From assembly GCA_963749565.1 (NCBI GenBank), contig CAVVNL010000004.1, positions 142,628-206,627 on the forward strand: a DNA stretch of 64,000 nucleotides, in the 5' to 3' direction. Below, piece after piece: positions 14,677-54,126 of the stretch (positions are counted from its first letter, which is position 1; every line of letters begins with the position of its first letter). Below the pieces are notes generated by a model. It was not told where the DNA came from. It did not search any database and saw only the letters and a list, made by a program, of their open reading frames with translations. The stretch comes from an uncultured Acidobacteriota bacterium (lineage in GTDB: Bacteria > Acidobacteriota > Vicinamibacteria > Vicinamibacterales > CAVVIG01). The position numbers were made by a program, and so were the translations under genes.

Positions 14677-16848
14677 ATGGGCCCCACGGAGCGACCTGAA
14701 GAGAATCCGGCTGAAGCCGGATCCAACAACCTGAGTCGGATCAGGTTGGTCGTCGTGGGCGGAGCGCTGCTCGTCACGGCAGTCGCATTCGCGCTGATCT
14801 GGCGAACGTTCGGCGCCACGCGCGAAGTCGGACTGCCCTTGGACTGGACGGCCACCGCCCTCGTGCTCGCAGGCGACGGCATCACCGGGACACGCGACGG
14901 CGACGCCGCCGCGGCGCGCTTCACGGACCCATTCGGCGTGGCGAGCGCTGCGGACGGCACCGTCTACGTCAGCGACGGCGCGGGCGCCGATCGCATCCGC
15001 CGCATTTCTCCAGACGGCCGCGTTTCAACACTCGCGGGCAGCGAGAACGGCTATGCCGACGGCACCGGCGACGCCGCCCGGTTCAGCACGCCGTCCGGCC
15101 TGGCGCTCGACGCGAGTGGGACGCTCTACGTGGCCGACACCGGCAACAACGTCATCCGTCGCATCACGCAGGACGGGCACGTCTCGACGCTGGCCGGAGA
15201 CGGGGTCGCCGGCGCAAGCGACGGCCCTGCCCAGGCCGCGCGCTTCAACGGACCGATCGGCGTGGCCGTGGAGCCGGGCGGCCGCGTCCTGGTGGCCGAC
15301 ACGTATAACGATCGCATCCGGACCATCGATCCGGACGGCACGGTAAGCACGCTCGCACCCGACGCGCGCTTCCATACGCCGACCGGCGTCGCCGTCGATT
15401 CCGTCGGCAACATTTATGTTGCCGACACAGGAAACGGCCTCATCCGCGTCATCGATCGGTCCGGCTTCGTCACCAACGTACCCTCGCCCTTCGACGGGCT
15501 CTTCCATCCGATTGGCATTGCCGCGGGCTCGGCGGGCGAGATCTACGCCACCGACGAGCGCGGACGGATCGTGGAAATCAGGGCCGACGGCTCGCGCATC
15601 GTGGCGGGATCGGGGCCCGGCTTCCGCGACGGCGGGGGGCGCGATGCGCTCTTCCGCAACCCGACCGGGATCGCATGGGTGTCACCCGGCCGGCTGATCG
15701 TCGCCGACGCGGGCAATGCGCTGGTGCGGCTCGTCACCGCTTCGTCCCAACTCGAGCTCCGCCTGCCCGCTTCGCCGCGGATCGCGCCGCAATTCGATGC
15801 CGACCGGTTCGGCTGGCAACCGCTTCTCTGGCCGGTCGCGCCGTTTGACGGCCCCCACGAGATTGCCGGCACGCTCGGCGAAGCCCGGGGCAGCGAGGGG
15901 GCCGCACGCCTTCATGCCGGCATCGACGTGCGAATCGAGCAGGGAACGCTGGTGCACGCGGTGCGCGACGGCATCGTCACGAGCCCGGTGTCCACCGATG
16001 GGTTCGGCTCGCTGAACGAATGGCTCCGGATCGGCCCGATCGTCTACGTCCACATCCGCGCCGGCAGAGGGCGGCGCAACGACATGGTCGATCTCGAGCG
16101 GTTCGTTCCCGCATACGAGCGCGGCAGGCTGGCGGGGCTGCGGGTCAAGCGCGGCGCGCGATTCACCACGGGCGAGGTGATCGGAAGCGTGAACGCGTTC
16201 AACCACGTGCATCTGAACGTCGGCTGGCCGGGCGAAGAGCACAACCCGCTCGTGTTCCGGCTCGTCCAGTTCGAGGACACCATCCCGCCGACCATCCCTC
16301 CGGGTGGCATCCTGCTGTACGACGAGGAGACACGGCCGCTTTCGCGGCGGTTCGACGGGCGGGTCGTCGTCGAGGGGCAAGTACAGATCGTGGTCGACGC
16401 ATGGGATCAGGCCGACGGCAACCAGCCGCAGCGGCGGCTCGGCCTTTACGATCTTGGCTATCAAGTGTTGAACCGCGACGGCTCGCCAGCGGCGGGTTTC
16501 GAGACCGTGCGTCACACTCAGCGCTTCGATCGCTTCTCCCAGGATCCAAGTGTGGCGGCGCTGGTGTACGCGCCGGGCAGCGGCATCCCCTTCTATCGCG
16601 GCGGACGCACGCGATTCCTCTACGTTGTCACGACCACGCTGCGGGAGGGACGGGCGTCGAAAGGATTCTGGGACACCACGCTGCTGGCGCCAGGCGATTA
16701 CATCGTCCGCGTGCAGGCTGCCGATGTGCGCGGGAACGTCGCCGTCGAGAATCGCGATGTGCCCGTGACGATCGTTCGGGCGCCTCCGACGGTCGCCGGA
16801 CACAACGACACCGACAGTCGGTGGAGTTCTATGCCGCTTCCACGCTGA
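14677..16848 (+). CDS. membrane-anchored NHL-repeat / M23 peptidase-domain protein
   Basis: TM segment LVVVGGALLVTAVAFALIW and NHL-type repeats (PFGVASAADGTVYVSD, PSGLALDASGTLYVADTGNNVIRRI, PIGVAVEPGGRVLVADTYNDRIR...). M23 motifs HAGIDVRIEQGTLVHAVRDGIV and FNHVHLNVG. The start is uncertain because REP-like hairpins lie in the first ~25 codons. Confidence 0.75.
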   Translation: MGPTERPEENPAEAGSNNLSRIRLVVVGGALLVTAVAFALIWRTFGATREVGLPLDWTATALVLAGDGITGTRDGDAAAARFTDPFGVASAADGTVYVSDGAGADRIRRISPDGRVSTLAGSENGYADGTGDAARFSTPSGLALDASGTLYVADTGNNVIRRITQDGHVSTLAGDGVAGASDGPAQAARFNGPIGVAVEPGGRVLVADTYNDRIRTIDPDGTVSTLAPDARFHTPTGVAVDSVGNIYVADTGNGLIRVIDRSGFVTNVPSPFDGLFHPIGIAAGSAGEIYATDERGRIVEIRADGSRIVAGSGPGFRDGGGRDALFRNPTGIAWVSPGRLIVADAGNALVRLVTASSQLELRLPASPRIAPQFDADRFGWQPLLWPVAPFDGPHEIAGTLGEARGSEGAARLHAGIDVRIEQGTLVHAVRDGIVTSPVSTDGFGSLNEWLRIGPIVYVHIRAGRGRRNDMVDLERFVPAYERGRLAGLRVKRGARFTTGEVIGSVNAFNHVHLNVGWPGEEHNPLVFRLVQFEDTIPPTIPPGGILLYDEETRPLSRRFDGRVVVEGQVQIVVDAWDQADGNQPQRRLGLYDLGYQVLNRDGSPAAGFETVRHTQRFDRFSQDPSVAALVYAPGSGIPFYRGGRTRFLYVVTTTLREGRASKGFWDTTLLAPGDYIVRVQAADVRGNVAVENRDVPVTIVRAPPTVAGHNDTDSRWSSMPLPR
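14705..14747. repeat. REP-like hairpin pair in the 5-prime end of, or upstream of, the NHL/M23 gene
   Basis: ATCCGGC-TGAA-GCCGGAT (14705-14722), then AACCTGA-gtcgga-TCAGGTT (14728-14747). The first hairpin has the same core as the hairpins at 27703-27772. Confidence 0.6.
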
Positions 16849-20383: not shown

Positions 20384-22086
<1,703 letters not shown>

Positions 22087-22245
22087 ACGAACTATGACTA
22101 TATCGTGAATTTGGCAACCGGGTCATTGGATAATCCGAGTTGGTCAGGTGTATCGTGCTGGTCTCGGTCGCCAGGAAATTGGTCCGTTTTGCGTGTTCGC
22201 ACATTGCCGGTTTTTCGTTATCTGTAAGGTAGTGAGGCAAGTTCA

Positions 22246-24830: not shown

Positions 24831-25271
24831 GTGCGCATCGCCATCGGCGCCGATCACGCCGGCTTTCCACTGAAAGAGCACCTGAAGCAGACGCTCCAGC
24901 AGACCGGGCACGTCGTCGACGATCACGGAACGCACAGTGAGGCGCCGGTGGACTACCCGCCTATCTGCATCGGCGTCGCGCGCGCGGTCGTCGAGGGCCG
25001 TGCCGATCGTGGTATCGTGCTCGGCGGAAGCGGCCAGGGCGAGCAAATCGCCGCCAACAAGGTGCCGGGCATTCGCGCGGCGCTGTGCAACGACCTGTAT
25101 ACGGCCCGTCTGTCACGCGAGCATAACGACGCCAACGTCCTCTCGATGGGCGGGCGGATCGTCGCGTTCGGCCTTGCGGACGAAATCCTGCGAGTCTGGC
25201 TCGAGACGGCGTTCGAGGGCGGACGGCATCAACGGCGAATCGATCAGATTGCGGAGCGAGCGCGGACCTGA
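24831..25271 (+). CDS. rpiB: ribose-5-phosphate isomerase B
   Basis: The GTG at 24831 gives (M)[17 protein letters not shown]. Also [23 protein letters not shown] and [11 protein letters not shown]. Confidence 0.85.
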
Positions 25272-25277
25272 TGCGGA

Positions 25278-25338
25278 GCGGACCTGATAAGGTCCGGCCA
25301 CGCGTAGGCCGATGTAGGCCGGGCCTTATCAGGCCCGG
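25278..25338. repeat. REP doublet (BIME-like), two inverted hairpins with GTAG/GTGG heads facing each other
   Basis: CGGACC-TGATAA-GGTCCG (25278-25295), then GCCAC GC GTAG GCCGAT GTAG, then GCCGGGCC-TTATCA-GGCCCGGC (25317-25338). The two loops are reverse complements of each other. There is also a direct repeat gcggacctgat x2 (25261, 25277). Confidence 0.7.
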
Positions 25339-25348
25339 CGAGGAAAAC

Positions 25349-26617
25349 ATGACGACAGAGACCACTACCGCCATGCTGCGCACGCTCGCCGAGACCGACC
25401 CCGAGGTGGCGCAGGCGATCCGCGACGAGCGCGAACGGCAGAACAACGGCATCGAGCTGATCGCGTCGGAAAACTTCGTCAGCCGCGCCGTCCTCGAAGC
25501 CGCCGGCTCTGTTCTGACGAACAAATACGCCGAGGGCTATCCCGGCCGGCGGTACTACGGCGGCTGCGAATTCGTCGACGTCGTCGAGCGCGCCGCGATC
25601 GCGCGCGCGAAGGCGCTCTTTGGCGCCGACCACGCCAACGTGCAGCCTCACTCGGGCGCGCAGGCGAACATGGCGGTGTATTTCGCGCTGCTCAAGCCGG
25701 GCGACACCGTGCTCGGCATGAACCTCGCGCACGGCGGCCACCTGACGCACGGCCACCCGCTCAATTTTTCGGGCAAGCTCTACACGATCGTTCCCTATGG
25801 CGTCCGGAAGTCGGACGAGCGGATCGATTACGACGAGCTCGATCGGCTGGCGGACGAGCACAAGCCCAGGATGATCATCGTCGGCGCGAGCGCCTATCCC
25901 CGCATCATCGACTTCGGGCGGATCCGGGCGGCGGCCGATCGAATCGGTGCCGCGGTCATGACGGACATGGCGCACATCGCCGGACTGGTGGCGGCGGGCC
26001 TCCATCCCAGCCCCGTGCCGCACTCCGACTTCGTGACGACCACGACGCACAAGACGTTGAGGGGGCCGCGGGCGGGCATGGTGCTGTGCCGCGAGCAGCA
26101 TGCGAAGGAAATCGACAAGTCGGTGTTCCCCGGGGTGCAGGGCGGTCCGCTCATGCACATCATCGCCGCCAAGGCGGTCTGCTTCAAGGAAGCGGGCGAG
26201 CCGGCCTTCAAGGAGTACCAGACGCAGATCACCGCGAACGCCAGGCGGCTGGCGGACGCGCTGTCAACTGCCGGCTTCCGGCTGGTCAGCGGCGGTACCG
26301 ACAATCACCTGATGCTCGTGGACGTGTTCTCGAAGGGCATCACGGGCAAGGCGGCTGAAGCCGCGCTCGGCAAGGCAGGCATCACGGTCAACAAGAACGC
26401 GATTCCGTTCGACCAGAATCCCCCGATGGTGGCCAGCGGCATCCGCGTCGGCACGCCGGCAGTGACGACGCGAGGCATGCGCGAGCCGCAGATGGAAACC
26501 ATCAGCGAGCTCATCGCGCGGGCCCTGAAGACCCCCGACGACGATCGGGCGCTCGGAATGATCAAGACGGAAGTCGAGACGCTGTGCCGGAAGTTCCCGC
26601 TGTATCCGGAGGTCTGA
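25349..26617 (+). CDS. glyA: serine hydroxymethyltransferase
   Basis: The ATG at 25349 gives [20 protein letters not shown]. Also [26 protein letters not shown] and [12 protein letters not shown]. Intact. Confidence 0.95.
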
Positions 26618-28743
26618 GCGAGTCCGTCCAGGCCATCTTCGCGCCCGGCGGCGCGCTGGCCCGGGCGATTCCCGGCTTCGAGGGCCGTCCCGGACAGATC
26701 GAGATGGCCGTCGCCGTCGCCCGGCGGTTCGAAGCGGGCGGCGTGCTCCTCGCCGAGGCGGGGACCGGCACGGGGAAGACGCTGGCGTACCTGGTTCCCG
26801 CGATTCTCAGCCGCCAGCGGGTGCTGATTTCGACGGGCACCAAGAACCTCCAGGAACAGATCTATTTCAAGGACATCCCCGCATTGCGGGACGCGCTCGG
26901 TGTGCCCTTCACGGCGACGTACATGAAGGGGCGGGCGAACTACCTCTGCCTGCATCGCCTCGATCAGCTGGATCCGGACGGGCGGGAGCGGCAGGAGGGG
27001 CAGGACAGGCAGGAAACATTCGTTCCAGCCCGTCCCGCCTTTCCCGCCCTTCCTGCCTTCTCCCGAGCGTCGGACGCTGCGGTGAACGTCTTCCTGCCGA
27101 TCATCCGCGAGTGGTCGGCGCGGACGGAGACGGGCGATCGCGCGGAGCTCGCCGACCTGCCCGAAGACGTGCCGGTGTGGAACGACGTGTCGGCGACCGC
27201 CGAAACGTGCCTCGGAACGGACTGCCCGCGTTACGACGACTGTTTCGTGACCCGGATGCGTCAGCGCGCCGCCGCTTCCGACGTCGTCATCGTCAACCAT
27301 CACCTGCTCTGCGCCGACGCCGCGGTCCGGCAGAACGCCTTCGGGGAAGTCATCCCGGCCTGCGCCAACGCGATCATCGACGAAGCGCATCAGCTCGAGG
27401 ACGTGGCGACGCAGTATTTCGGCTATAGCGTCAGCAACTACCGTCTGGAAGAACTGGCTCGGGACGTCGAACGGCTGACGGCGGCCGGTGACGTCACCGA
27501 CGAACGCGGCGTCGCCGCAGCGGTTGCCGGCCTGCGCGATGGCGCCCGCGCGTTCTTCGGCGATCTGGCCCTGGCGCATCGCAGCACGGATCGCGTTCGT
27601 GGCGAGGAACGCGTGCGCGCCAGCTCGTCGTCCCTTCTGCAAGCAGCCGAGGCAGCGGCGCAACTGACGGGCGCACTCGATCTCGTCGAGGCCGCCTTCA
27701 CGGTCCGGCTAAAGCCGGACACTACGACTACGACTCCGAACCATTCAGTACAGCGTCCGGCTTCAGCCGGACCGTGATCCCGACGGCGACTCCGACAGAA
27801 CGAGGCGGTCGCGACGCTCGCCCGACGCGCTGCCGCGCTACGCGACGAAATCAGGCTCCTGCTGCGCGCGGGCGACGCCGACTTCGTATATTTTGTCGAG
27901 TTCCGCGGGCGGGGCATTTTCCTCAGGGCCGCGCCGGTGGACGTCTCGGCCATCGTTCGGGAATTGCTGCTGGATCGGATGCGCACGACCATTCTCACGT
28001 CCGCGACGCTCACCGTGGACGGCACCTTCGAGTACATCCGGAAGCGGCTTGGCATCAGGGGCGCGGATGAGGTCTGCCTGCCGTCGGAGTTCGATTTCGA
28101 GCAACAGGCCATCATGTATCTCCCGCGGCGCATGCCGGATCCGCGGTCGAGCGATTTCCCGCTGGCGGCGGGCCGCGAAGTCGTCGAGATCCTGAAACGA
28201 ACGCGCGGACGGGCTTTCGTCCTGTTCACCAGCTACGCCACGATGCGCGATGTGCTGGGCATCGCCGAGATGGCGCTCGAGTATCCGATCTTCGCGCAGG
28301 GCTCGGCTCCCCGCACCCAGTTGCTCAAGCTCTTCCGTGAGACGCCGCACGCCGTGCTGTTTGCCACGTCCAGTTTCTGGCAGGGCGTTGACGTCGCGGG
28401 CGAGGCGCTGAGCTGCGTGATCATCGACAAGCTGCCGTTCGCCTCGCCGTCCGATCCGGTCACCGCGGCCAGGATCGATGCCGTCCGCGAGCGCGGCGGC
28501 GATGCCTTCGGCGAGTATCAGGTTCCCCTCGCCATTCTGGCGCTCCAGCAGGGACTGGGACGCTTGATCCGTCACCGGCAGGACCGCGGCGTGCTTGCCG
28601 TGCTCGATCCACGGCTGCGCACAAAGGGGTACGGGCGGCGGTTTCTCGCTTCGTTCCCACCGGCGCCGCAGGTGTCGGATTTCGCCCGTATCGAGGCCTT
28701 TTTTTGCCCTTCGGCCGAGGCGGTGAAAAAGAGTAAACTGTAG
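26584..28743 (+). CDS. DinG/Rad3(XPD)-family ATP-dependent DNA helicase, single frame but interrupted by an in-frame TGA at 27775-27777
   Basis: Walker [15 protein letters not shown], Fe-S cysteines (NYLC...[12 protein letters not shown]), DEAH box [10 protein letters not shown], and C-terminal motifs [28 protein letters not shown]. ORFs 26584..27777 and 27937..28743 share a frame, and the intervening codons are open. Confidence 0.8.
27703..27772. repeat. REP doublet embedded in the helicase ORF
   Basis: GTCCGGC-TAAA-GCCGGAC (27703-27720), a 34-nt spacer with ACTACG ACTACG ACT and CTAC/GTAC heads, then GTCCGGC-TTCA-GCCGGAC (27755-27772). The in-frame TGA follows 2 nt later. Confidence 0.75.
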
Positions 28744-35200: not shown

Positions 35201-35485
35201 GGCACATCATACCTTGGCACGGGCAAACGAACATTGGTCCACGCGTGAAGCCGTCCTGGCGAAGACCGCGTTCCACCTGCAAAGCGTTTCGTTGGTTTGG
35301 CGATGATCTCGGGATTGATCGCAGTGGCTTTCACGTTTAGCGATCATCTGGACACAAGCCGGAAACCATTCCGTTGATGTGCCCGCCCGATCGTTGATTC
35401 GCGGATCTCGGGCGACATTCAACTGGCGTTCCCCCGAATCGGTTCAGCTGGCGCAGTAATCGCGTCCGCGCGGCCGTCGGCCCCG

Positions 35486-35491
35486 TATAAT
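35486..35491 (+). promoter_or_regulatory. candidate -10 box TATAAT, 11 nt upstream of the TTG start of kinase 1
   Basis: ccccgTATAATccactgaacgaTTGgct. The same arrangement is conserved upstream of kinase 2. Confidence 0.45.
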
Positions 35492-35502
35492 CCACTGAAC
35501 GA

Positions 35503-38174
35503 TTGGCTCTCAGCCCCGGCGCGCGCCTAGGCGTTTACGAAGTCACGGTCCAAATTGGCGAAGGTGGCATGGGCCAGGTCTACCGGGCCCGCGACACGAA
35601 GCTGAATCGTGACGTCGCGCTCAAAGTGCTGCCAGACCTCTTCGCGAGCGACGCCGAGCGGCTGGCGCGTTTCACACGCGAGGCCCAGACCCTCGCCTCG
35701 CTGAACCATCCGCACATCGCGGCAATCTACGGTCTCGAGGAATCGGGCGGTGTGCGCGCCCTGGTCATGGAGCTCGTCGAGGGCGAGGACCTCTCACAGC
35801 GGATCGCGCGCGGCGCGATCCCGCTCGACGAAGCACTCCCGATAGCGCGCCAGATCGCCGAGGCGCTGGAGGCGGCGCACGAGCACGGGATCATTCATCG
35901 CGATCTCAAGCCCGCGAACATCAAGGTGCGGCCGGACGGCACCGTGAAGGTGCTGGACTTCGGTTTGGCGAAGGCCGATCGGAACCGCCGGCCTCGTCGC
36001 CGGAGCGTGACGCAGTCGCCCACGCTGACCTCGCCCGCGATGATGACCGGCATGGGCGTGATCCTCGGCACCGCCGCGTACATGTCGCCGGAACAGGCCG
36101 TGGGCCGGCCGGCCGACAAGCGGAGCGACGTCTGGGCGTTCGGCGTGGTGCTGCTGGAAATGTTGACGGGGCGGCCGGTGTTTGCGGGCGAGACGGTGTC
36201 GCATGTGCTTGCCGCGGTGTTGAAGAGCGCGCCGGATTGGACAACGCTGCCGGCCGACACGCCCGCGTCGATCCGGACGCTGCTGCGGCGCTGCCTCGAG
36301 AAAGATCGCAGGCACCGACTGGCCGATGCGGCGGACGCACGACTCGAGATCGAGGAGGCGCTGATCGACGGCAGGCAGCGTCGCGCCGGCATCCGCGGCG
36401 CCAGTCCGGCACGCACGCCTCCCGTGGGTCGTCGCTGCCCTGGCGACGATCGCCGCCGCGGCGGCGGTCGCGCTGTGGGCGCCGTGGCGCACCGAGCCCG
36501 AACCGGCCCGCGTGGCGTTTGAGGTGCAGACGGCCTACCCCAGGCGGCGGCGGCCCGCTCACATGTTCGCGATCTCGCCCGACGGCACGCATCTCGTCGC
36601 GCTCGTCCAGGACGGCGATGTCCGGAAACTCTGGGTCCGACCGCTCGCGCGCCTCGAGGGCGTCACGCTCGAGCGCACCGATGGCGCGTGGTACCCGTTC
36701 TGGTCGCCTGACGGCGACACCGTCGGTTTCTTTGCGGACGGCAAGCTGAAGACGATCGATATCTCTGGCACAGCGCCGCAGACGCTCGCCGACTCGCAGT
36801 CCGGCCTGGGGGGGCACATGGAACCGCGATGGCGTGATTCTCTTTGCCCCGCGACAGGACGGTCCCATCTACCGTGTGGCGGCGAGCACGGCGGTCCCGT
36901 GGTCCCCGTGACCGAGCTCGACGCCACGCGCGGCGACACGTCCCACCGGTTTCCCCGCTTTCTCCCCGACGGCGTGCACTTTGTCTATCTCGTCATCAGT
37001 TCGAGACCCGAATCGGGCGGCATCTACCTGGGGTCCCTCGCGTCGAAGGAAGCGCACCGGCTCGTGGACGCGCCGAGCAAGCCGGAGTTTGCGCCGCCCG
37101 ATCTGCTGCTGTTCCTGCGCGAGAGCACGCTCACGGCGCAACGGCTCGATACCAACAGCTCCCAGATCGTTGGCGCGCCGTTCCGGATCGTTGCGCCGGT
37201 GGGCCGACGCCGAACAACGGGGTCGCGGCGTTCTCTGTGTCGGACAACGGCGTGCTGGCGTACCGGACAGGGTTCGGTGGCGGCGTACGAGAGCTGGTCT
37301 GGGTGGACCGAAATGGAAAGCGGGAGCGCACGGTCGGTCCCCCGGCTCTTTACCAGAATCCCAGGCTGTCGCCAGACGGGCAACGGCTGGCGGTGTTCAA
37401 GCCTGAGGACGGCGGCGACATCTGGGTCATCGAGTTGGAATCCGGCAATGGCACGAGGTTCACCTTGGATCCGGCGTCCGACAACGTGCCGCTGTGGTCG
37501 CCGGGACGGCACCCGGATCGCGTTTGTCTCGGATCGCGAAGGCGGCGTCTTCAACATCTACCAGAAGAACGCCGGAGGCACGGGGCCGGAAGAACTGCTG
37601 TTCAAGAACCGAGCACTCCAAGACTCTCAACGACTGGTCGCCCGATGATCGGTATCTCCTGTACCAGGAAGTGGATCCGCAGACGAAGAAGACCGACGTC
37701 TGGATGTTGTCGCTCGCGGATCGCAAGGCGTCCCGGCTCCTCACCAACCCCTCGATCAGCGAGAGCGAGAGCGAGGCGACGTTTTCGCCGGACGGCCGCT
37801 GGATCGCCTACACATCAGGCGAGGGCGGCATGCCGGAAGGTGCTACGTGCAGAAGTTTCCGACCCCGGACGGGAAGTGGCAAGTGTCAAGCGGAGCGGGT
37901 CGGTGCACACCCACGCTGGGGAACGGACGGCAAGGAATTGTTCTTTGACATCATGGGGACGATGGCGGCTGTCAGCGTCACAGGTCTGGGGCCGGAGACG
38001 AGTTCAGACCAGGCGCGCAGAAGACACTGTTTGCGGGACTGCTCGGCGGCTGCCCCACACAATTTCGATGTCGCGGACGCAGGACAGCGCTTCCTCGTGC
38101 AGCTGGTGCCGGGGGAAGCCTTGCCGATCACCGTCGTGGTGAATTGGAAGTCCGGCCTGTCTCTGGGGCGATGA
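35503..38174 (+). CDS. Ser/Thr protein kinase fused to a TolB-like (PD40/WD40-like) beta-propeller region, many frame breaks
   Basis: Kinase motifs GEGGMGQVYRARD, VALKVL, HRDLKPANIKV, DFGLAKA, YMSPEQ. C-terminal PD40-type repeats (FAISPDGTHLV, FWSPDGDTVGFF, RLSPDGQRLAVF, ATFSPDGRWIAYTS). The protein path hops between ORFs 35503, 36512, 36844, 36981 and 37494. Confidence 0.75.
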
Positions 38175-38218
38175 TCAACGCGGGGCGCCTTCCTGACTGG
38201 CGCGACGAAAGAGGTCCC

Positions 38219-39043
38219 ATGCGACGGCTGCAGTTCTCCATCCTTGCCGCGCTGCTGACAACGGCCGGCAGCGTGTTTGCGCAGTCGAATCCGTTCGACG
38301 GCCTGATCGGCGGCGCGCTCTCCCCGGATCCCGTTCTGTACGCGAAACAGAAGGCCCAGTGGCTCGCTCGTGTTGAGGCGCTTCCCCAGGATGTGGATGT
38401 CCTCGAGGGAGCAGCACAATTCTTCATCATCCGCGATCGACCGCTGGCCCAGGACCTGCTCGGCCGGGCGCGCGCCCTCGAGCCGGACAACCCGCGGTGG
38501 GTATTGCAGCTGGCCCATTTGCACAGGATGAACGCCGCAGCGCGGGGCGACGCCGCCGAAGCGCTCCTTGCGTTGAGCGAAGAGGAGCAGGCGTACGCGA
38601 TGGCGTCTGCAACCGAACGAACGTTGCCGACTGTGCTGCCCCAAACGGCGTTCGATGCGGGCGATTTACCGAAGGCCGCGGCGTACGCGCAGCGGTTGCT
38701 CGACGAGGCGGGGAGCTATCGCGACAATTGGAACTACGGGAACGCGATTCACAAAGGAAATCTCGTGCTGGGCCGCATCGCCGTGCGCGAAGAGAGGATC
38801 GCGGATGCGGTGAAATTCCTGCGTGCGTCCGGAGAGACACCCGGGTCGCCGCAGCTCAACTCCTTCGGGCCGAACATGTCGCTCGCCAGGGATCTGTTGG
38901 AGCAGGGTGAGACTGAGGCCGTACTGGCGTACTTCGAGTTGTGCCGCGTGTTCTGGAAGATGGGCGGCAGCCGCCTCGATGCCTGGGCCAGGGAAGTCCG
39001 GGCGGGCAACCTGCCGGCGTTCGGTGCGAACCTCAGCTACTGA
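38219..39043 (+). CDS. secreted helical-repeat hypothetical protein
   Basis: The ATG at 38219 gives signal MRRLQFSILAALLTTAGSVFAQ. The rest is alpha-helical/TPR-like. Intact in the frame of ORF 38144..39043. Confidence 0.6.
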   Translation: MRRLQFSILAALLTTAGSVFAQSNPFDGLIGGALSPDPVLYAKQKAQWLARVEALPQDVDVLEGAAQFFIIRDRPLAQDLLGRARALEPDNPRWVLQLAHLHRMNAAARGDAAEALLALSEEEQAYAMASATERTLPTVLPQTAFDAGDLPKAAAYAQRLLDEAGSYRDNWNYGNAIHKGNLVLGRIAVREERIADAVKFLRASGETPGSPQLNSFGPNMSLARDLLEQGETEAVLAYFELCRVFWKMGGSRLDAWAREVRAGNLPAFGANLSY

Positions 39044-39096
39044 TCGTTCATGGCTCGGCGTCCGCAGGAATCCGCCGCGCGCGGCCGCCCGGCCCG

Positions 39097-39102
39097 TATA
39101 AT
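39097..39102 (+). promoter_or_regulatory. candidate -10 box TATAAT, 11 nt upstream of the TTG start of kinase 2
   Basis: ggcccgTATAATccacggagcgaTTGgcc, paralogous to 35486..35503. Confidence 0.45.
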
Positions 39103-39113
39103 CCACGGAGCGA

Positions 39114-41847
39114 TTGGCCCTCCTCCCCGGCGCGCGCCTCGGCGTCTACGAAGTCACGGCACAAATTGGCGAAGGTGGCATGGGCCAGGTCTACCGGGCC
39201 CGCGACACGAAGCTGAATCGTGACGTCGCGCTCAAAGTGCTGCCGGACGCGTTCGCGAGCGACGCCGAACGGCTCGCCCGGCTGACCCGCGAAGCCCAGA
39301 CCCTCGCGTCGCTGAACCATCCGAACATCGCGCACATCTATGGGCTCGGAGGAATCTGGTGGTGTGCGCGCCCTCGTCATGGAGCTCGTCGAGGGTGACG
39401 ATCTGTCGCAGCGGATTGCGCACGGCGCGATCCCGCTCGACGAAGCACTCCCCATTGCGCGCCAGATCGCCGAGGCGCTGGAAGCGGCGCACGAGGCGGG
39501 CATCATCCATCGCGATCTCAAGCCGGCAAACATCAAGATCCGCGAGGACGGCACCGTGAAGGTGCTCGACTTCGGGCTGGCGAAGCTCACGCAGGCTTCA
39601 GGCTCTGGGCTTCAGGCTTCGGGAGAACTCAGTCAGTCGCCGACGATCACGACGCCGGCGATGACGCAGGCCGGGATGATTCTGGGCACGGCGGCGTACA
39701 TGGCGCCGGAGCAGGCGAAAGGGCGCGCGGCCGACAAGCGCAGCGATGTCTGGGCATTCGGGTGTGTGCTCTACGAGATGCTCACGGGCCAGCGGGCGTT
39801 CGAAGGCGAAGACGTCGGCGACACGCTTGCGGCGGTCTGCGGGCGCGAGCCGGACTGGGCCGCGCTGCCCACTGATCTTCCGCCGGCAATTCGCACGCTG
39901 GTGCAGCACTGCCTCGTGAAAGATCGACGTCAGCGGATCGCCGACATTTCGGTCGCACACTTTCTGCTGACTCAGCACGCAGGCCTTGCGCCCGCCGCCG
40001 TCCCGGCGGTGGCCGTTCCACGCCTGCCGCTGTGGCGACGTGTGGCTGCGCACGCTGGTGGAGCGTTGGCAGGGGCCGCGGTCGCCGCAATGGTGGGCAC
40101 CGGCCTCTGGCTCGCGATGCGTCCGGCGCCGCCCCGCGTTTCGCGTCTGCTGATCACCCCGCCGAGCGCAGAGGCATTGACGATCTCCCGGCGCTCGACT
40201 CGCGACGTGGCGATCACGCCCGACGGATGCGCGCGTCGTCTACGCCGGCGTCAATAATACGCTGGTCGTGCGAGCGCTCGACCAGCTCGACGCGACGCCG
40301 CTGACGGGCCTCGGCGTTGCGCCGCAGTAACCTGTTCGTATCGCCCGACGGCCAATGGATCGGCTTTGTCGACCGACGGAAACCAGAATCTGAAGAAGGT
40401 GCAGATAACCGGCGGCCCGCCGATCGCGGTGGCCCGCCTCGACGGTGCGTTGAGCGGTGCCACCTGGGGGCCGGACGGCGCGATCATTTTCGGAACCACG
40501 AACCTCGAGACCGGCCTGCAACACCTCGCCCCAGACGGTGGGGAGCCGACCGTGCTGACGCGGCCAAACCGTGAGGGGGGTGAGGGCGATCACGTCTGGC
40601 CGGAATTCCTGCCGGGCGGTCAGGCGGTCCTGTTCACGATCAGGGCGACGACGGGCGACCTCGACCAGGCGCAGATCGCCGTGCTCGATCTCCGGAACGA
40701 TAGGCAGACTACGCTGATACGGGGGGGCACGGACGCCCATTACCTGCGGAGCGGCCATCTGGTATACGGTGCGGCCGGGACCTTGCGGGCCATCGCGTTC
40801 GATCTGGCCACGCTCACCGTTCAAGGCTCGGCGGTGCCCATCGTGGAAGAGGTGCTGACCAAGGTCACCGGCGCCGTGGACGTCGCGGTGGCGGGCGACG
40901 GAACGGTCGTCTACGTGCCGGGTGTTCTAGGAGCGGCGGCGCAACAGACGCTGGTCTGGGTCGATCGTCAGGGCCGCGAGGAACCGCTCAAGGCGACCGC
41001 CCGGGCGTACGCGAATCCCCGGCTCTCGCCGGACGGGACGCGCGTGGCGCTCGAGAGCCGCGACCGGCAGAACGACATCTGGATTCTGGAGCCTGAACGG
41101 GAGGCGCCAACGCGCCTGACGTTCGACCCTCTCTGCGATCAGTCTCCGGTGTGGACGCCCGACAGACAACGCGTCATGTTCAGCTCGGGCCGGAGCGGTG
41201 TCGTTGTGCCGAATATGTTCTGGCACGCCGCAAATGGGACAGGAACAGTCGAGCGCCTGATCCAGAGACCGAACAGTCAAAATCCCACGGGCCATCTCAC
41301 CGGACGGCACGCGGCTCGTGTTCGAGGAGACCGTGGCGGGAGCTAGTGACATCATGATGCTGACGCTGGATAAGGACAGGCGTGTCGAGCCGCTGGTGCG
41401 AGACACCATTCAACGAGCGAAACGCGGAGATCTCCCCCGACGGACGGTGGCTGGCCTACGAGTCGAACGAATCCGGGCAGTACCGAAATCTACGTGCGAC
41501 CATTCCCCGACGTGAACAGCGGTCGCTCGCCGAGTCTCCACGGCGGGTGGTACCCGACCGCTGTGGGCCAAGAAGCGGCCAAGAGCTCTTCTACGTGGCG
41601 CCGTCGGGCGCGATCATGGCCGTCCCGTATCGAACAGGGACCAACCTGGAAGGCCGGCACGGCCGCCAAGCTGTTCGACTGGCCGATTTCTGCCGTCACC
41701 AGTCGCTCGTACGATGTATCGGGTGACGGGCGGTTTCTGATGCTCAAGCCGGTCGCTGGATCCGAGTCGGCGCCAGCCCCGACGAGCCTCGTCGTCATCC
41801 AGAACCTCGACGTGGAGCTGAAGCGGCTCGTGCCGATCAAGAACTGA
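39114..41847 (+). CDS. Ser/Thr protein kinase fused to a TolB-like beta-propeller region (paralog of 35503..38174), many frame breaks
   Basis: The kinase core is nearly identical to kinase 1, including an 83-nt perfectly identical stretch (39162-39244 vs 35551-35633). Motifs HRDLKPANIKI, DFGLAKL, YMAPEQ, and PD40-type repeats (FVSPDGQWIGFV, RLSPDGTRVALE, AEISPDGRWLAYESNESG). The first break (an extra g) is near 39347. Confidence 0.75.
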
Positions 41848-41874
41848 CGCTGTGCGTGCAGGATCGAAACTCGG

Positions 41875-43065
41875 TTAACGCTTATCGACGACGATCCGGC
41901 CGCCCTTGATAACCACCTTCGTTTTCAGCCAGTTCCAATACCCTTCCAGCGGGTCACCATCGAGCAGGATGATATCGGCAAGTTTGCCGGGCGCGAGCTC
42001 GCCGAGCTTGTCGCCCATCTGGATGTATGACGCCGTGTTCGGTCCCATCATCTTGATGAGATCCCGCGTCGAGAACATCACGTTGAGAATCCTCAGCTCG
42101 TGGTCAAGTCCGGCCCTCGGATCGTAACCGGTATCCGTGCAATAGCCCAGAATGACGCCGGAGTCCCACAGCGTACGCGCATTCAGCGGCGCGTGCGCTG
42201 CTTCTTCACCCATGTGGAGGTCGGGGACGCGAGACGTGAGGGGAATAGAGTCAGGCCATGCTCTGCCGTCCCGGAATCGGGGGACGTTGTCGTCGGCAAA
42301 GACGCCGAAAACCGGCGAGCCGAAGCCGACCGTCGTCAACACCTTGACGCCGGAGGCAGCCATCTTCCGGGCGTTCTCTCGCGTGAGGAAGTTCTTGTTC
42401 GTGGTGTGAACCAGCAGGGGCACGCCGGCTTCGATGGCGGCCATGGTGGATTGCGCGCTGACCGCATGCACCTGGACCATCACGCCGACCTTCTTCGCCT
42501 CGTCCACGATGGCCCGAAGAACTTCCATCTCCCTGTCCGTCGGACCTGGAAATGACGTGAGCCCGATCTCGCCCGTGAATTTGACGCCCATCGCCGCCAT
42601 CTGCCGCACCTCGGCGCGCGCCACTTCCGGAGTAACGGTCAGGCTCACCCTTCCGGAAGGAATGATGCGCGGCCCGTTGATCAGGCCCTGATCGATGCGG
42701 TCCCGAAGGGTGATGTTTCCATCGGCGGGACCGCCTCCGGACAGGATCGTCGTGTAACCGGCTTCGAGAAGCGCCTGCATCTGCTCCTTCTCGTTCGGAC
42801 CGGTGTTGATGTGCCGGTGCGCATCGATGAACCCTGGCATCGCGGTCATGCCGCTGGCATCGACGATGGTCCCGCTTGGAGCGCTTGCGGCGCCCGGTTC
42901 AACCGAAACGATGCTACCGGCACGGACCACTATCGAGCCGCGCTCGATCAGAGATCCATTGGCGGCGATGATGCGGGCGTTGGTGATGGTGAGGTCCTGA
43001 GCGGCTACGAACTCCGTTGCGCCTGGGACAAGACAAAGCAATGTTACAAGGATGCGTCCGTTCAT
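41875..43065 (-). CDS. secreted amidohydrolase-family metallohydrolase
   Basis: Signal MNGRILVTLLCLVPGATEFVAAQ and metal-binding GFIDAHRHI. Amidohydrolase-fold blocks extend through ...PGKLADIILLDGDPL. Confidence 0.8.
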   Translation of the reverse strand: MNGRILVTLLCLVPGATEFVAAQDLTITNARIIAANGSLIERGSIVVRAGSIVSVEPGAASAPSGTIVDASGMTAMPGFIDAHRHINTGPNEKEQMQALLEAGYTTILSGGGPADGNITLRDRIDQGLINGPRIIPSGRVSLTVTPEVARAEVRQMAAMGVKFTGEIGLTSFPGPTDREMEVLRAIVDEAKKVGVMVQVHAVSAQSTMAAIEAGVPLLVHTTNKNFLTRENARKMAASGVKVLTTVGFGSPVFGVFADDNVPRFRDGRAWPDSIPLTSRVPDLHMGEEAAHAPLNARTLWDSGVILGYCTDTGYDPRAGLDHELRILNVMFSTRDLIKMMGPNTASYIQMGDKLGELAPGKLADIILLDGDPLEGYWNWLKTKVVIKGGRIVVDKR

Positions 43066-43178
43066 ACGGTTCTTCCCCTATGATGCGTCCAATGCTGCTG
43101 AAGCGGCGTCGTTTGGAGCCTCGCGCGGCTAATGAACGCGTGACGAAACCGGGCCGGCCGTGGCGTGCGGGATCAACC

Positions 43179-45060: not shown

Positions 45061-47263
45061 CTACCAACGATACAGAATGCCGAACACCGCCGAGTGGGCG
45101 GTGTAGGGCCGATACACGTAGCCCATGACCAGCGAGCTCGGCTGCACGATGCCGTTGACCACGCTCGGGTCGAACGCGAAGTCGTAGATGCTCAGCGGCT
45201 CGTACAGGTACGAGAACGACGCGGCGAGGCGGTCGGAGAGCCGGTACCGCCCGTCGATGTGCAGCTGCTGCAGCTTGTTGAACACGTCGGGCAGCTGATT
45301 GGGCGGCGGGATCGGGCTGCCCGCCGGGATCGGCGTAGAGGTAGCTCCCCTCGGCGTAGCTGAAGTCGTAGGCGACGCGGATCTCAGTGTTGGCGCCGAT
45401 GCGTGGCGGGCTGGCGTAGATCGAGAAGTAATTCACCGTCTCGGTCGAATCGGCGGTCCAGTCGCGCAGCGGATCGTTGAACTGGGCCGTGGACGAATCC
45501 CCCTCGTGCGAGCGCTGCAGCCCGGCGTAGCGCTCGTAGTTGTAGCTCCCGCCCGCGCCAAAGCCGTTCGGCCGCTGGAAATCCGCCGCGAGCGAGAACG
45601 TACGGCCGGTGGAATCCTGCAGGCCGTAGAAGCTGTTGCTGAAGTCGTCCTTGAGGACGCCGGTGGCCACGCTGAACGTCCAGGCGTCGGACGGCACGAT
45701 ATCGGCCTGGGCCGTGAAGCGGTTCCTCGTCCGATCGGCGACGTCGTAGTGGCGCATCTTGGGTTGCTCGCCAATCGCCGTCAGCCGCGTTTCGTCGAGA
45801 TCTGAACCGGTGCGATCGCCGACCTCGTATTGCGTCCGGAAGGTGAGCCACGAGGTTCCGACGGCATCGGCCGACACGCGGAACACGTTCTCGCCGCTCG
45901 ACTCGAAGATCCGCGCATCGTAGCCGTTCCCGTTGTGCGAGTAGCCGACCGTGAGCGCGAACGGCATCAGTTTCGTCCACGTGGCGTCGCCGTCGAAGGT
46001 CGTCCGGCTGTGCGCGTAGAGGTCCGGACCGCCCGTTGGCGTCGTCGACGCCGAGGAGTCGTAGCTGACCATGTCCGTGATCGACGTCGCGGGCATGAGG
46101 TTGTCGTAGGTGTAGTTGCGCACGCGCGCGCTGAACCGCCAGTCGGTCGACGGGCGCGAGTTGAGGCTCAGGTTGGTCGAGAAGACGTGCGCTTCCCCCT
46201 CGGTGGTCGCGCGGGGCAGCGCGAACTGCGGCAGCGCCGCGTTGATCGTGAAGGGCTCCAGCGGCTCGTCGTTGCTCCACAGTCCATAGGAGAAGGAGCC
46301 CGTCACCTGCGTTCTGCGCGCCAGCTTGGTGTAGCCGCCGAAGCTGATCGTCTGGGCCGAGTTCGACGGCCAGAGGGACATGCGTCCGCGCCCCGGATTC
46401 TCGACCCCATCGTTGAGGTCGAGCGGGCTGTCCCAGACCAGCGTCGGCGCGAGGTTGTCGAACCACGATCCGCTGTAGGCGACACGCAGCATGTTGCGCG
46501 CGTTCGTCCACTCGGTGCCGATGGTGAAGTCGTTCGCGCGCGAATCGTAGGGGAGCGCCACCTCGACGTCGTTGCTGAAGCCGAAGCTGGCCCCCCAGGG
46601 CAGCTCGCCGCTGTGCTTCTGCGTGGTGAAGCTGGCCGTTGACGTCGAGGTTCGGCTTCGGCGTCGCGACCATGTCGAAACGGCCGATGTCGCGCCGCTC
46701 GCGCAGCTCGAACTGCGGCGCCAGCGGGACGTAGGCGTTGAGATTGGCCTGGCCGTTCTGGATCGCGCGCTGCGTCGCGTCGTCGAGCACCAGCGTGCCG
46801 CCGGTGCCCGTATACGGCGTCATCGTATCGACGCTGTAGAACTGCGGAATCTGCTGCCAGCTGCCGCTGAGCGACAGCTTGCCGATCCGGCCGTAAGTCC
46901 CCATGAACTCCTGGTCGCGGTAGCCGACGTTCTCGGCGCGCGCGTGGAAATCCCACGTACCGTCCGGCTTGGCGAACGAGTAGCGGAAGTTCGAGAACAG
47001 CAGCCCGTCGCGCTGGTCCTGGTAGCGCTGGTAGCGCGCCGGGTCGCCGTCCACGCTCGTGAAGCGGCCCCCGATGAGGAATTCGCGCGAGGTCGGCTCG
47101 AAGAGACTGCGCGACGCGACGCATCGGCCGCCGCGGGCGCGGCCGGCTGCGCCGGGGTCTGAGCCGATGGCTGCGCCGGCGGTTGGGCGGCTCCCTGTGC
47201 GAGTGCGGCACCGGGCGCGGCGAGGCCGAGCAGGGCGATCGTCGTGATGGCGAATCGGCGCAT
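45061..47263 (-). CDS. MtrB/PioB-family outer-membrane beta-barrel (decaheme-associated porin), three frame breaks
   Basis: Signal MRRFAITTIALLGLAAPGAALAQ and the family-typical DGDPARYQRYQDQRDGLLFSNFRYS. A long barrel with alternating aromatic strands ends in ...AVFGILYRW. The path is ORF 46820..47263, then 45384..47054, then 44858..46561, then 45061..45285 (breaks near 47105, 46590, 45300). Confidence 0.75.
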
Positions 47264-48598: not shown

Positions 48599-48627
48599 TT
48601 GACACGTAGTGGACGCGAGCGCATAAC
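48599..48627 (+). promoter_or_regulatory. candidate sigma70-type promoter for the formate dehydrogenase operon
   Basis: TTGACA (48599-48604), a 17-nt spacer, then CATAAC (48622-48627). GGAGGA lies 5 nt before the ATG at 48702. Confidence 0.4.
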
Positions 48628-48701
48628 GTAGCGGCAGTCGGAGCCGGGTCTCACAACGGCGAGGAGAGAAACCGAAGACCGCAGTCGCACGGAGGAAACC
48701 C

Positions 48702-51700
48702 ATGGATGAATCCGCGGATGCTCCGACCCGGAACCCCTCCGAGAGCCCGTTGGATGGGAGTGGCACACCGACGTCGACAATCAGCCGCAGAGACCTGTTC
48801 AGGCTGACCTTCGGCGGTGGAGCAGGACTCGCGCTCGGCGGGCTCCTCGACGTTCCCGCGATGCGGGCCGCGACGAGGGACTTGAAGCTCTCGGACGTCA
48901 GCGAGTTCACCACCTCGTGCAACTTCTGCTCGTGCGGGTGCGGCATGATCGCCGCCGTCCGCGACGGCAAGCTCCTGACGATGGAGGGCGACTACGACCA
49001 CATCGTGAACCGCGGGGCGCTGTGCGTCAAAGGCATTTCCATGTTCGCGACGCACGCCTCCCCGAAGCGGCTCACGACGCCCCGCTACCGGGCGCCGGGC
49101 AGCGACCACTGGGAGGACATCTCCTGGGACGACGCGATCACGCGGGTCGCGCAGAAGATCCGGAAGACGCGCGACGAGACCTGGATCGCCACCGAGAAGG
49201 TGGATGCGCCTGAACTCGTCGTGGATCTCGCTGCGGGTGATCGGATCGAGAGCGCCCCACGGTTCGTCCCTCAGGAGGACGGCAACGCAGAGGTGCCGGT
49301 CAATCGCACCGACGCGATCGGCTTCATGGGCGGCGCGCAGAACACGAACGAGGAGTGCTACCTCTTCCAGAAGGCGGCCCGGCTGCTCGGCCTGGCTTAC
49401 GTCGAGCACCAGGCCCGGCTTTGACATAGCCCCACGGTCCCCGGTCTGGGGGCCACGTTCGGGCGGGGAGCGATGACCAACCACTGGGTCGACCTGCAGA
49501 ACTGCAAGACGATCCTGGTGGAAGGCAGCAACGTCGCCGAAAACCACCCCATGGCCTTCAAGTGGATCCGGAAGGCCCAGGAGAACGGGGCGAAGATCAT
49601 CCACGTCGATCCGCGATACACCCGGACCTCGGCGGGGGCGGACGTGTACGCGCGCATCCGGCCCGGCACCGACGCGGCGTTCCAGAACGCGATGATCAAC
49701 CACATCATCGTCAACAAGCTGTACGACGAGGATTACGTCGTCACCCACACGAACGCCCTCTACCTGGGCGACGAGGCGTTCGACTTCAAGGATGGGGTCT
49801 TCAGCGGCTACGACGAGGAGCACCACACCTACGACACCAAGACCTGGGGATACCAGCTCGACGCGAAGGGCAAGCCGCGCGATCGCCAGGAGCCTCGATG
49901 ACCCGCACTGCGTGTTCTCGCGCCTGAAGACCTTCGTCTCGCGGTACACGCTGGAGATGGGCGAGCGGATCACCGGCATTCCGGCCGATCAGATCCGGCA
50001 GATCGCGGAGACGATGGCGAAGAACCGGCCGGGATCCATCCTCTACGCGCTCGGGATGACCCAGCACACGACCGGTGTGCAGGGGATCCGGTCGTTCACG
50101 ATCCTGCAGCTCCTGCTCGGCAACATCGGCAAGCCCGGAGGCGGCGTCAACGCGCTGCGCGGCGAGCCGAACGTGCAGGGCGCGTGCGACATGGCGGTGC
50201 TCTACAACTACATGCCGGGCTACCTCAACTCGCCGACCAATGCCGAGCCGACGATCTACCACTACGTGCGCAAGAACGGGATCGCCGACAGCCGGTACCT
50301 CGTCAACACGCTCAAGGCGTTCTTCGGAGAGGCGGCCACCGCCGAGAACGACTATGCCTATGCCTGGCTGCCCAAGCGCGACGCGGCCAAGGACTACGGC
50401 ACCCTGCCGATGTTCGAGGATGCCCTCGCCGGGAAGCTGAAGCTCCTCTGGATCGTCGGCCAGAATCCCGCGGTCACCCTGCCCAACCTCAAGCTGACGT
50501 TCGACGCGATGGCGAAGCTCGAGACGCTCGTGGTCCAGGAGATCTGGGAGACCGAGACCGCGGCGTTCTGGCGCCGGCCCGGCGTCGACCCGAAGTCCAT
50601 CGCCACCGAAGTGATCCTGCTGCCCGCGGCGTTCTTCATGGAGAAGAACGGCACCATCAGCAACTCGGGCGGCATGGTGCAATGGCGCCACGCCGCCGTG
50701 AAGCCGCCGGGGCAGGCCAAGCCCGACGGCGAGATCGTGGACCTCGTCTTCCGCGCGGTGCGCGATCTGGTCAAGGACTCGAAGGAGCCGAGGGACGAGA
50801 TCATCCGCAAGGCCTTCTGGACCTACACCACGGCCGAGGACGTCCTGCGCGAGATCAACGGCTACGCCCTGCGCGACAACCCGGAGACCGGCCTCAAGGC
50901 GGGCGATCTCATCCGCAAGGTCGGCGATCTTCGGGCCGACGGTTCCACGTCGTCCGGCGCCTGGATCTACGCGGGCGTCTTCGCCAACGGCGAGAACCTC
51001 TCGAAGCGCCGCGACTCGACAACGGATCCGGGAGGCCTCGGCCTCTATCCGGGCTTCGGGTGGACCTGGCCCAACAACATGCGCATCCTCTACAACCGCG
51101 CGTCGTGCGACCGGAACGGCAAGCCCTATCCGGGCTCGAAACCCATCGTCTGGTGGGACGAGCAGGCGAAGCGCTGGACGGGATACGACGTGCCGGACGT
51201 CCCCGTCCTGACCGACGGACCCGACACGCCGAACGGCCAGCGGGCCTTCCACCTGGGCGCGGAGGGCGTCGGGCGCCTCTTCGCGGCCGTCTACACGGAC
51301 CCCGACGCGAGGTTCACCGAATATTGGCGCGACGTGGCCTACGTGCCGAAGGACGGCCCGCTGCCGGAGATGTACGAGCCCGTCGAGAGCCCGGTGGAAA
51401 ACATCCTTCACCCGGGCGTGAAGAGCAACCCGATGCTCAAGTATCCGCGCGTCGCGTCGCATCAGCCCATCGGCACCGCCGACAAGTTCCCCTACGTGCT
51501 GATGACGTCGACGGTCGCCGAACACTGGTGCTGCGGCTCGACGACGCGGAACATCCCCTGGCTCAACGAGCTCGTCCCCGAACCGATGGTGGAGCTGCCG
51601 GTCGCCCTCGCCCAGAAGCTCGAGATCACATCGGGGGACTGGGTCCGGGTCTCGTCGGCGCGCGGTGAGCTCGAGGTCAAGGCCCTCGTCACGCCCCGCA

Positions 51701-54122: not shown

Positions 54123-54126
54123 GCCG

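Follow-up and report, generated by a model that had tools for sequence, protein, structure and literature searches.

A gene for a YoaA/DinG-family DNA helicase that is interrupted by a single in-frame TGA, directly beside a pair of palindromic repeats, raises the question of what the stop means: whether the helicase has recently been lost, is made in two pieces, is decoded through an unusual reading of UGA, or is in reality uninterrupted in the living organism. We examined this locus within the window, which is the whole 64,000-nucleotide stretch of DNA analysed here, by comparing the gene, its repeats and its neighbors with those of related genomes. An earlier sequence-only reading of the same DNA had interpreted the repeats as a fresh insertion, and its claims are taken up where the evidence that bears on them is given.

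A helicase gene in one frame, broken by one stop

The gene opens with a GTG in frame 1 and reads to the TGA, after which the same frame continues with helicase sequence to a TAG at 28741-28743 (Table 1), just as the sequence-only reading had described. The next in-frame start after the stop is the GTG at 27937, with none between 27778 and 27937, and in the source record the gene is annotated as P0122 (397 aa) and P0121 (268 aa), two separate proteins. Among database proteins the closest is P0001, which shares 95% amino acid identity, is 702 aa long and runs without interruption. It scores 723.5 bits against the NCBIfam model NF053712 (YoaA), above the cutoff of 680, while on the same model the two fragments of the window score 356 and 339, the first reaching profile position 320 and the second spanning 374-629. 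Membership in the YoaA/DinG family is thus supported by the equivalog score of P0001, above the curated cutoff, and by motifs present in both halves. Among the matches listed, all 120 homologs are single proteins with both PF00270 and PF13307, many of them named DinG or assigned to Vicinamibacterales, and the relatives have the helicase gene intact with the gene order unchanged.

Escherichia coli DinG (6FWR) matches with E = 2e-38 and aligns to P0001 residues 190-278 and 435-678. The hairpin site, at about residue 374, falls in the stretch left unaligned to DinG, between the DEAH box and motif III, which we take to be the Arch domain on the known XPD/DinG architecture; the earlier assignment of the repeats to the Arch region therefore agrees with the alignment. 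Comparison of the window with the related contig L001 gave a pN/pS of 0.14 for the part of the gene upstream of the REP (18 synonymous and 7 nonsynonymous differences) and of 0.08 for the part downstream of the missing base (13 synonymous and 3 nonsynonymous). These ratios indicate that both halves are under strong purifying selection and have evolved as coding sequence, so that a real disruption could only have happened very recently. A separate palindrome at 26976-27057, the first in the gene, was checked as a possible repeat family and has no copies beyond the orthologous site.

Table 1. Features of the helicase locus, in coordinates of the window.
Feature	Position	Strand	Remarks
YoaA/DinG-family (XPD-like, Fe-S) DNA helicase gene	26584..28743	+	single frame, broken by TGA 27775
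Complete REP doublet: CACG, forward REP, tails and spacer, reverse REP, CGTG	27699..27776	+	inverted repeat and folding
Forward REP: GTCCGGC-TAAA-GCCGGAC and tail ACTACGAC	27703..27728	+	in frame gives VRLKPDTT
52 nt (3n+1) absent from L001 and L125	27703..27754	+	placement ambiguous by the 8-nt repeat GTCCGGCT
Reverse REP: degenerate GTAG-type tail GTACAGC and GTCCGGC-TTCA-GCCGGAC	27748..27772	+	5' GTRGY pattern; DNA alignment
Segment off the ancestral frame	27755..27798	+	44 nt; frame 2 matches P0001 and the L120 linker D-T-D-G-D-S
In-frame TGA	27775..27777	+	identical bases are CGT GAT in intact relatives
Missing base, GACAG^AAC	27794..27801	+	GACAGAAC in the window, GACAGCAAC in L001 and L125
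C-terminal helicase ORF, GTG start	27937..28743	+	source-record annotation; first YoaA profile position 374

Two inverted hairpins of a GTAG-tagged REP family

The repeats are two hairpins with the stem GTCCGGC/GCCGGAC, namely GTCCGGCTAAAGCCGGAC (27703-27720, loop TAAA) and GTCCGGCTTCAGCCGGAC (27755-27772, loop TTCA), and both the stems and the translation previously reported for them are correct. Exact copies of the hairpin occur in the 64-kb window only at these two places inside the helicase gene. With 7-bp stems and 4-nt loops, the units are of the size and form expected of REPs, i.e., short imperfect palindromes of 20-40 bp. The doublet is bounded by the outer flanks CACG (27699-27702) and CGTG (27773-27776), which recur on other copies of the repeat (L010, L022, L029, L085, L096 and L127). 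Since the CGTG flank is part of the REP unit, the TG of the TGA is itself REP sequence. The 39-nt arms of the doublet form an inverted repeat (I1) that is 79% complementary, and the doublet folds as RNA into a single long hairpin of -53.1 kcal/mol (z = -7.4), a stability reached by none of 200 shuffled sequences.

To describe the family beyond this locus, we scanned one genome per species with the pattern GTCCGGCTNNAGCCGGAC, which matched at least 117 stretches. Among the matches listed, 63 of 80 titles name Acidobacteriota or Vicinamibacterales, often with several contigs from one MAG, and the genome RIFCSPLOWO2_12_FULL_65_11 has at least seven REP copies on four contigs, so that the repeat is dispersed and present in many copies. 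The forward consensus is (CACG)GTCCGGCT[G/A]AAGCCGGAC-ACTACGTAC and the reverse consensus is GTACGTAG[T/C]-GTCCGGCTT[T/C]AGCCGGAC(CGTG). Among the matches listed, a 3' ACNAC is found on 40 of 62 forward copies and a 5' GTRGY on 41 of 62 reverse copies, which is the orientation tag of GTAG repeats (PMC3733652); the two tails in the window, ACTACGAC and GTACAGC, are degenerate. Judged by stem, flanks and tag, the hairpins are assigned to a GTAG-tagged REP family common in Vicinamibacterales MAGs, and the identification as a REP doublet is borne out by this dispersed and oriented repeat in many Vicinamibacterales and Acidobacteriota assemblies.

The family is mainly extragenic, as only 12 of 142 copies among the matches listed fall within long coding-like ORFs, flanked on either side by 100 codons or more. 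Pfam searches of nine intragenic cases returned, for seven of them, domains flanking the repeat on both sides or one domain spanning it; the exceptions were L057, where just one side gave a hit, and L043, which may be intergenic. The hosts supported in this manner are a phosphoglucomutase (L114), a UvrD/AddA-like helicase-nuclease (L091), Lhr (L005), PheT (L103), a GH127 enzyme, a Ser/Thr kinase and an S9 peptidase. The copy in L114 is likewise a forward-reverse doublet with 52-nt spacing, located between phosphoglucomutase domains I and II, with another spacer.

REPINs, of the REPIN/RAYT systems, are said to consist of two inverted REPs with a short spacer that fold into one long hairpin, and the helicase doublet has this same geometry. 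Unlike a REPIN, however, it has no identical copy that we could find at other loci: the same combination of arms and spacer was not recovered in the family scan, where L114 shares the spacing alone, and a doublet-specific metagenome scan for the same allele returned one unrelated locus with a different spacer only. The 90% cluster of P0001 contained no intact protein of the doublet type.

An old element at a length-variable site

When the REP is read in frame, VRLKPD is the product of the forward hairpin and VRLQPD that of the reverse one. At the same alignment position, orthologs that are 78-89% identical at the protein level have in-frame residues of REP origin: VRLKPD in P0003 and P0007, VRLKAD...VRLQPD in P0002 and VRPKPDTTTPN in P0005. 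The DNA of P0002 contains a doublet with 42-nt spacing whose first stem is compensated (GTCCGCC/GGCGGAC), and L120 has the forward tail ACTACGAC..CCNAACC and the start of the spacer in common with the window. These shared elements show that the REP doublet is old at the helicase site, and it appears to have been inherited vertically at this locus, with no recent movement. The fresh insertion originally proposed is contradicted by the presence of the same REP, in frame and at the same site, in these orthologs. The sequence-only reading had itself named extra residues carried natively by orthologs as the observation that would speak against an insert, and this is in part what we found, the orthologs having REP peptides.

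Nevertheless, the site varies among close relatives. Two short-read contigs of independent origin, L001 (JGI sample, 97.9% nucleotide identity) and L125 (ENA sample, about 98%), encode an intact 702-aa gene with a single hairpin in the arrangement CACG-hairpin-CGTG, an allele that, on comparison of the sequences, resembles what would be left of a doublet after deletion from one stem to the other. A third allele is present in L124, a long-read-style contig; we dropped L124 as a third witness for the linker, because it is too error-ridden. Three alleles are thus seen among genomes that are 97-98% identical, and the site is hypervariable. With respect to the nearest intact orthologs, the window does have extra DNA, but as 52 nt (27703-27754) and not as the 69-nt insert first delimited, and it lacks one base at 27798/27799.

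A repeat on both sides of the second hairpin had been taken as reminiscent of a target duplication. The repeat is present, as 15-nt segments at 27725-27739 and 27781-27795 with 13 of 15 positions identical, and one as good arose in 1 of 500 mononucleotide shuffles. Its copies, however, mark no indel boundary: they abut neither the 52-nt indel nor the second hairpin, and the indel is flanked by the hairpin stem itself, so a target-site duplication finds no support here. One copy consists of REP tail and spacer, and the other belongs to the acidic linker, which is also present in alleles lacking the first hairpin. The two segments may be linked by a templated change.

Two compensating frame shifts expose the TGA

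The hairpin spacing of 52 nt equals 3n+1, which puts the second hairpin and the following linker one base out of register. The reverse REP is translated in the window as (Q)RPASAG, one base away from the VRLQPD frame of P0001 and P0002, and frame 1 of the displaced segment as a whole gives RPASAGP, the stop, and then SRRRLRQ in place of the conserved acidic linker. The missing base then puts the helicase back in frame 1 downstream. It is because this segment is read outside its ancestral frame that a TGA is present at all. On these alignments, the TGA results from a pair of compensating frame shifts on either side of a 44-nt segment, involving no point mutation and no feature of the insert as such. 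The missing base sits among six differences from P0001 within about 30 nt (27785-27812).

We propose that a GTAG-type REP doublet has been part of the helicase gene for a long time, within a variable surface loop of the Arch-equivalent region, and that the doublet is normally translated in frame, adding some 20-30 residues (VRLKPD...VRLQPD and an Asp-rich linker). In the window, the 52-nt spacing and the missing base leave the second REP and the linker shifted out of that frame, and the shift exposes a TGA made of the REP flank CGTG plus an A.

Translation across or around the stop

The first alternative to be weighed against an interrupted or misassembled gene is that the UGA is recoded: it might be decoded as selenocysteine or read through, or ribosomes might bypass the hairpin region. 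The organism appears to decode UGA as selenocysteine in its formate dehydrogenase, and a very stable hairpin stands directly upstream of the helicase TGA. Bacterial selenocysteine recoding, however, depends on a UGA followed immediately by a SECIS hairpin, whereas the helicase hairpin is upstream of the codon and no stable structure lies 3' of it (27775-27835, z = +1.19). The codon is also unconserved and outside the ancestral frame, with orthologs reading CGT GAT in another frame and conserving neither UGA nor Cys at the aligned position. The read-through product, RPASAGPxSRRRLRQ, is not homologous to the conserved acidic linker, and no pair of take-off and landing codons restores frame 1. 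Bypass was considered separately and rejected, as the downstream CCG codons (27780-27782 and 27792-27794) land in the wrong frame and a GGA landing site is lacking. Recoding, which had been offered as one of three readings of the stop, is therefore scarcely credible here.

The second alternative is a functional split helicase, in which a 397-aa N-terminal protein containing HD1, the Fe-S domain and part of the Arch domain would assemble with a C-terminal protein begun at GTG 27937. This too had been suggested from the sequence; the source record annotates precisely these two ORFs, and both halves are conserved. However, a start at 27937 would forfeit 53 conserved YoaA profile positions (321-373), including a conserved 11-residue run in which V435-G444 are invariant and the first Y is variable, the relatives do not have the gene split, and the break arises in a segment that is merely out of frame. 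We thus regard a two-protein helicase of this kind as highly improbable.

As a separate observation on the window, the formate dehydrogenase TGA at 49422 occurs in the context ARL-U-HSPTVPGLGATFGRGAMT, with a hairpin GGUCCCC-GGUCU-GGGGGCC 14 nt downstream, and is a genuine-looking putative selenocysteine site. A scan of the window with Rfam at gathering thresholds found a TPP riboswitch only and nothing at the helicase site; since the same scan also missed the formate dehydrogenase site, it carries little weight for SECIS elements. No tRNA genes were found in the window.

Frameshifts elsewhere in the window

Whether the two helicase indels are real has to be judged against the rest of the window. 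Indels were counted from alignments to L001, L125 and L120 and from split Pfam hits, which together provide approximately 16-18 kb of comparable sequence; a GC3-based frame scan was too noisy for counting frameshifts unaided. The short-read contig L125 (16.2 kb, 96-98.5% identical to the window) has every gene intact, and its LepA protein is identical. The window's DivIVA gene has a +1 at 30854 that puts the conserved C-terminal half out of frame, while the gene is intact in L001 and L120. An RlmI-like methyltransferase gene, with a +1 at 24545 and a +1 at 24272, is left as three parts in three frames, the parts being 84-94% identical to the L120 protein. The MtrB/PioB porin gene has insertions at 45330, 46638 and 47109-47114, one of them +5 and the other two +1, the formate dehydrogenase alpha subunit has its Molybdopterin domain split between two frames near 49,700-49,900, and, at 35.5-41.3 kb, Ser/Thr kinase-PD40 genes are scattered over several frames. 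This amounts to at least 6-7 frameshifting indels besides the helicase (at least 7-8 with it) in the comparable sequence, or about one indel per 2-3 kb. The related contig L124, which comes from an assembly of the same kind, is broken up likewise, with SHMT, ThiC and the helicase each in fragments.

Long-read or low-coverage assemblies are known for scattered 1-nt indels that split conserved genes into adjacent ORFs, and the window resembles them in having split ORFs whose encoded sequence is near-identical to that of relatives. The source is a soil MAG contig of 516 kb that has the look of a long-read assembly. It is very unlikely that a living cell would have fresh frameshifts in so many conserved, near-identical genes, and consensus error is the economical reading of so many frameshifts in sequences this close to their relatives. 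Given the many other single-base frameshifts in the window, both frame-breaking indels of the helicase most probably arose as consensus errors too, in an assembly that is error-prone, and the palindrome together with strain-level length variation may raise the likelihood of error at this site. We therefore infer the two indels to be errors and consider the helicase stop a likely assembly artefact, with the real gene intact.

Some observations do not fit this reading comfortably. At a density of roughly one indel per 2 kb, two independent random errors 45-95 nt apart are unlikely beforehand, and, unlike what random assembly error predicts, the two indels bracket a palindromic, length-polymorphic site at closer range. 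The cluster of differences at the missing base suggests a truly divergent local haplotype in which the indel could be real. Furthermore, the missing base of the helicase is a deletion, in contrast to the majority of the other coding errors in the window, which are insertions.

These same features are what a genuine recent inactivation would draw upon, in which a REP-mediated rearrangement shifted the frame and left the helicase as a young pseudogene. The rearrangement could have occurred through slippage or recombination between the hairpins or through a templated change of the linker, and the gap at 27798/27799 would then be either real or a single assembly error that happened to restore the downstream frame. 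The hypervariability of the site, with three alleles among genomes 97-98% identical, the clustering of differences around 27785-27812 and the direct repeat with 13 of 15 matches, which is improbable by chance and hints at a templated event, are all consistent with this history, and it requires one error or none where the artefact requires two. On the other hand, the C-terminal half has a pN/pS of 0.08 and no other lesion, the gene is intact and gene order kept in all relatives, and the indel load of the window makes any one frameshift suspect. In the form first stated, a gene freshly inactivated by an insert ending in a stop, the claim finds no support, as the TGA lies in an out-of-frame 44-nt stretch that reads CGT GAT in relatives and the window has many other frameshifts. 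In its revised form we consider inactivation unlikely, though it is the main rival of the artefact reading.

A further reading takes the stop as real, with the doublet in this essential-looking repair helicase acting as a reversible on/off switch through hairpin indels that toggle the frame between strains, or with the helicase being made in two pieces. We consider this quite improbable. Were it true, the three alleles among genomes 97-98% identical would be a visible trace of the switching.

The most likely account is an intact gene in the living organism and a stop introduced by the assembly. At about one indel per 2-3 kb, in-frame stops, split genes and recoding candidates from this window, and probably from the whole source contig, need read-level confirmation before they are interpreted.

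Relation to known palindromic elements

The classic case of an intragenic palindrome is that of the Rickettsia palindromic elements, which reportedly occur in frame within protein-coding genes and are tolerated in surface loops. They are approximately 100-150 bp long and CGTC-tagged, in a reduced intracellular genome, whereas the helicase REPs are 18-bp hairpins with a GTAG-type tail.

A closer precedent is provided by the GTAG- and CGTC-tagged REPs, which are mostly extragenic, often form inverted dimers and recur inside genes (Di Nocera, De Gregorio & Rocco 2013, BMC Genomics 14:522, PMC3733652). In several species, over half of the intragenic copies of both types are dimers or grouped, encoding 20-30 residues, and many of the intragenic REPs reside in replication and repair genes, including uvrA, uvrB, recB, dnaE2 and genes for ligase and helicases (PMC3733652). 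The same study lists GTAG repeats for Proteobacteria, Cyanobacteria, Chloroflexi and the PVC group, with Acidobacteriota absent (PMC3733652). The locus described here resembles those cases in being a dimer of GTAG-type palindromes inside a repair gene, in this instance a YoaA/DinG helicase, and differs from them in its phylum, in its family-specific stem and in the frame break at the window's copy.

REP dimers inside repair genes are thus already documented, and the present locus is only mildly new, in its phylum and in the persistence of the element at one loop across deep divergence. In-frame GTAG-type REP dimers in repair and helicase genes extend a known pattern to Vicinamibacterales (Acidobacteriota), where one loop of YoaA keeps its REP element down to approximately 78% protein identity while near-identical strains differ in its length.

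Frame changes and an in-frame TGA elsewhere in the window

Relative to intact short-read contigs, six frameshifting insertions were found in three genes of the window, five of a single base and one of 5 nt, and at four of these six events a new CG dinucleotide was created by the insertion or lies at its site. The extra base at 24545, in the gene for an RlmI-like rRNA methyltransferase, is C in one comparison and G in another. The formate dehydrogenase alpha gene, too, shifts from one frame to another: around 49,700-49,900, positions 97-198 and 178-347 of the Pfam Molybdopterin model fall on different frames. The TGA codon of this gene is probably a genuine selenocysteine codon, judging from its canonical sequence context (ARL-U-HSPTVPGLGATFGRGAMT) and from a hairpin, GGUCCCC-GGUCU-GGGGGCC, 14 nt downstream.

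Features of the window, in order of position
Feature	Position	Strand	Remarks
Hairpin ATCCGGCTGAAGCCGGAT	14705-14722		in an ORF of 723 aa (start 14677), at its codons 10-15
TPP riboswitch	21985-22089	-	Rfam RF00059, 65.7 bits; upstream of thiC homolog
RlmI-like rRNA methyltransferase gene	24272, 24545		two frameshifting insertions
REP-like pair CGGACCTGATAAGGTCCG and GCCGGGCCTTATCAGGCCCGGC	25262-25345		intergenic, rpiB-glyA; family different from the helicase REP
Second in-frame palindrome of the helicase gene	26976-27057	+	rich in GGCAGGA/TCCTGCC
DivIVA gene	30854		frameshifting insertion
Two Ser/Thr kinase-PD40 genes and an amidohydrolase gene	35346-43131		~7.8 kb
MtrB/PioB porin gene	45330, 46638, 47109-47114		three frameshifting insertions
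Formate dehydrogenase alpha subunit gene	48627-51918	+	in-frame TGA at 49422-49424
FdhE-like gene	54040-54957		after the formate dehydrogenase alpha gene

Palindromes and REP-like elements within the window

The second palindrome of the helicase gene (-55.9 kcal/mol, z = -3.7 on folding) is translated in frame at a hypervariable loop distinct from that of the REP doublet and is common to the window and the orthologs P0001 and P0002. At the same loop, other helicase orthologs carry a REP-like peptide of another kind, VGDGLKPVPYR, which is sometimes doubled. No copies of the palindrome were found beyond the orthologous site.

The loops of the rpiB-glyA pair are mutual reverse complements, and this region varies in length, with more units in L125, an intact short-read contig of a near relative, than in the window. 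Hairpin ATCCGGCTGAAGCCGGAT differs from the helicase REP hairpin solely in its outermost base pair; its place near the beginning of an ORF may be due to chance or to a miscalled start.

The kinase-PD40 segment, whose two kinase genes are each scattered across several reading frames, is flanked by the genes for citrate synthase and a NapC-like cytochrome. It is missing from both L125 and the error-ridden, long-read-style contig L124; at that exact junction these two contigs have a REP doublet (GTCCGCCTTCAGGCGGAC...GTCCGGCTGAAGCCGGACACCACGTAC).

REP copies outside the window

A forward-reverse REP doublet with a start-to-start spacing of 52 nt, identical to that of the window helicase, was found at 3249-3318 of L114, another REP-bearing stretch. 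A phosphoglucomutase/phosphomannomutase gene there carries it in frame, with domain I encoded on one side and domain II on the other. The hairpin core also occurs in other phyla. In two Gemmatimonadales contigs (L016 and L047) it carries an identical tail, GTACGTAGT, which could reflect a shared REP family or mis-binning. The flanks of the core differ in four proteobacterial contigs (L037, L070, L042 and L044), which suggests that these copies belong to separate REP families.
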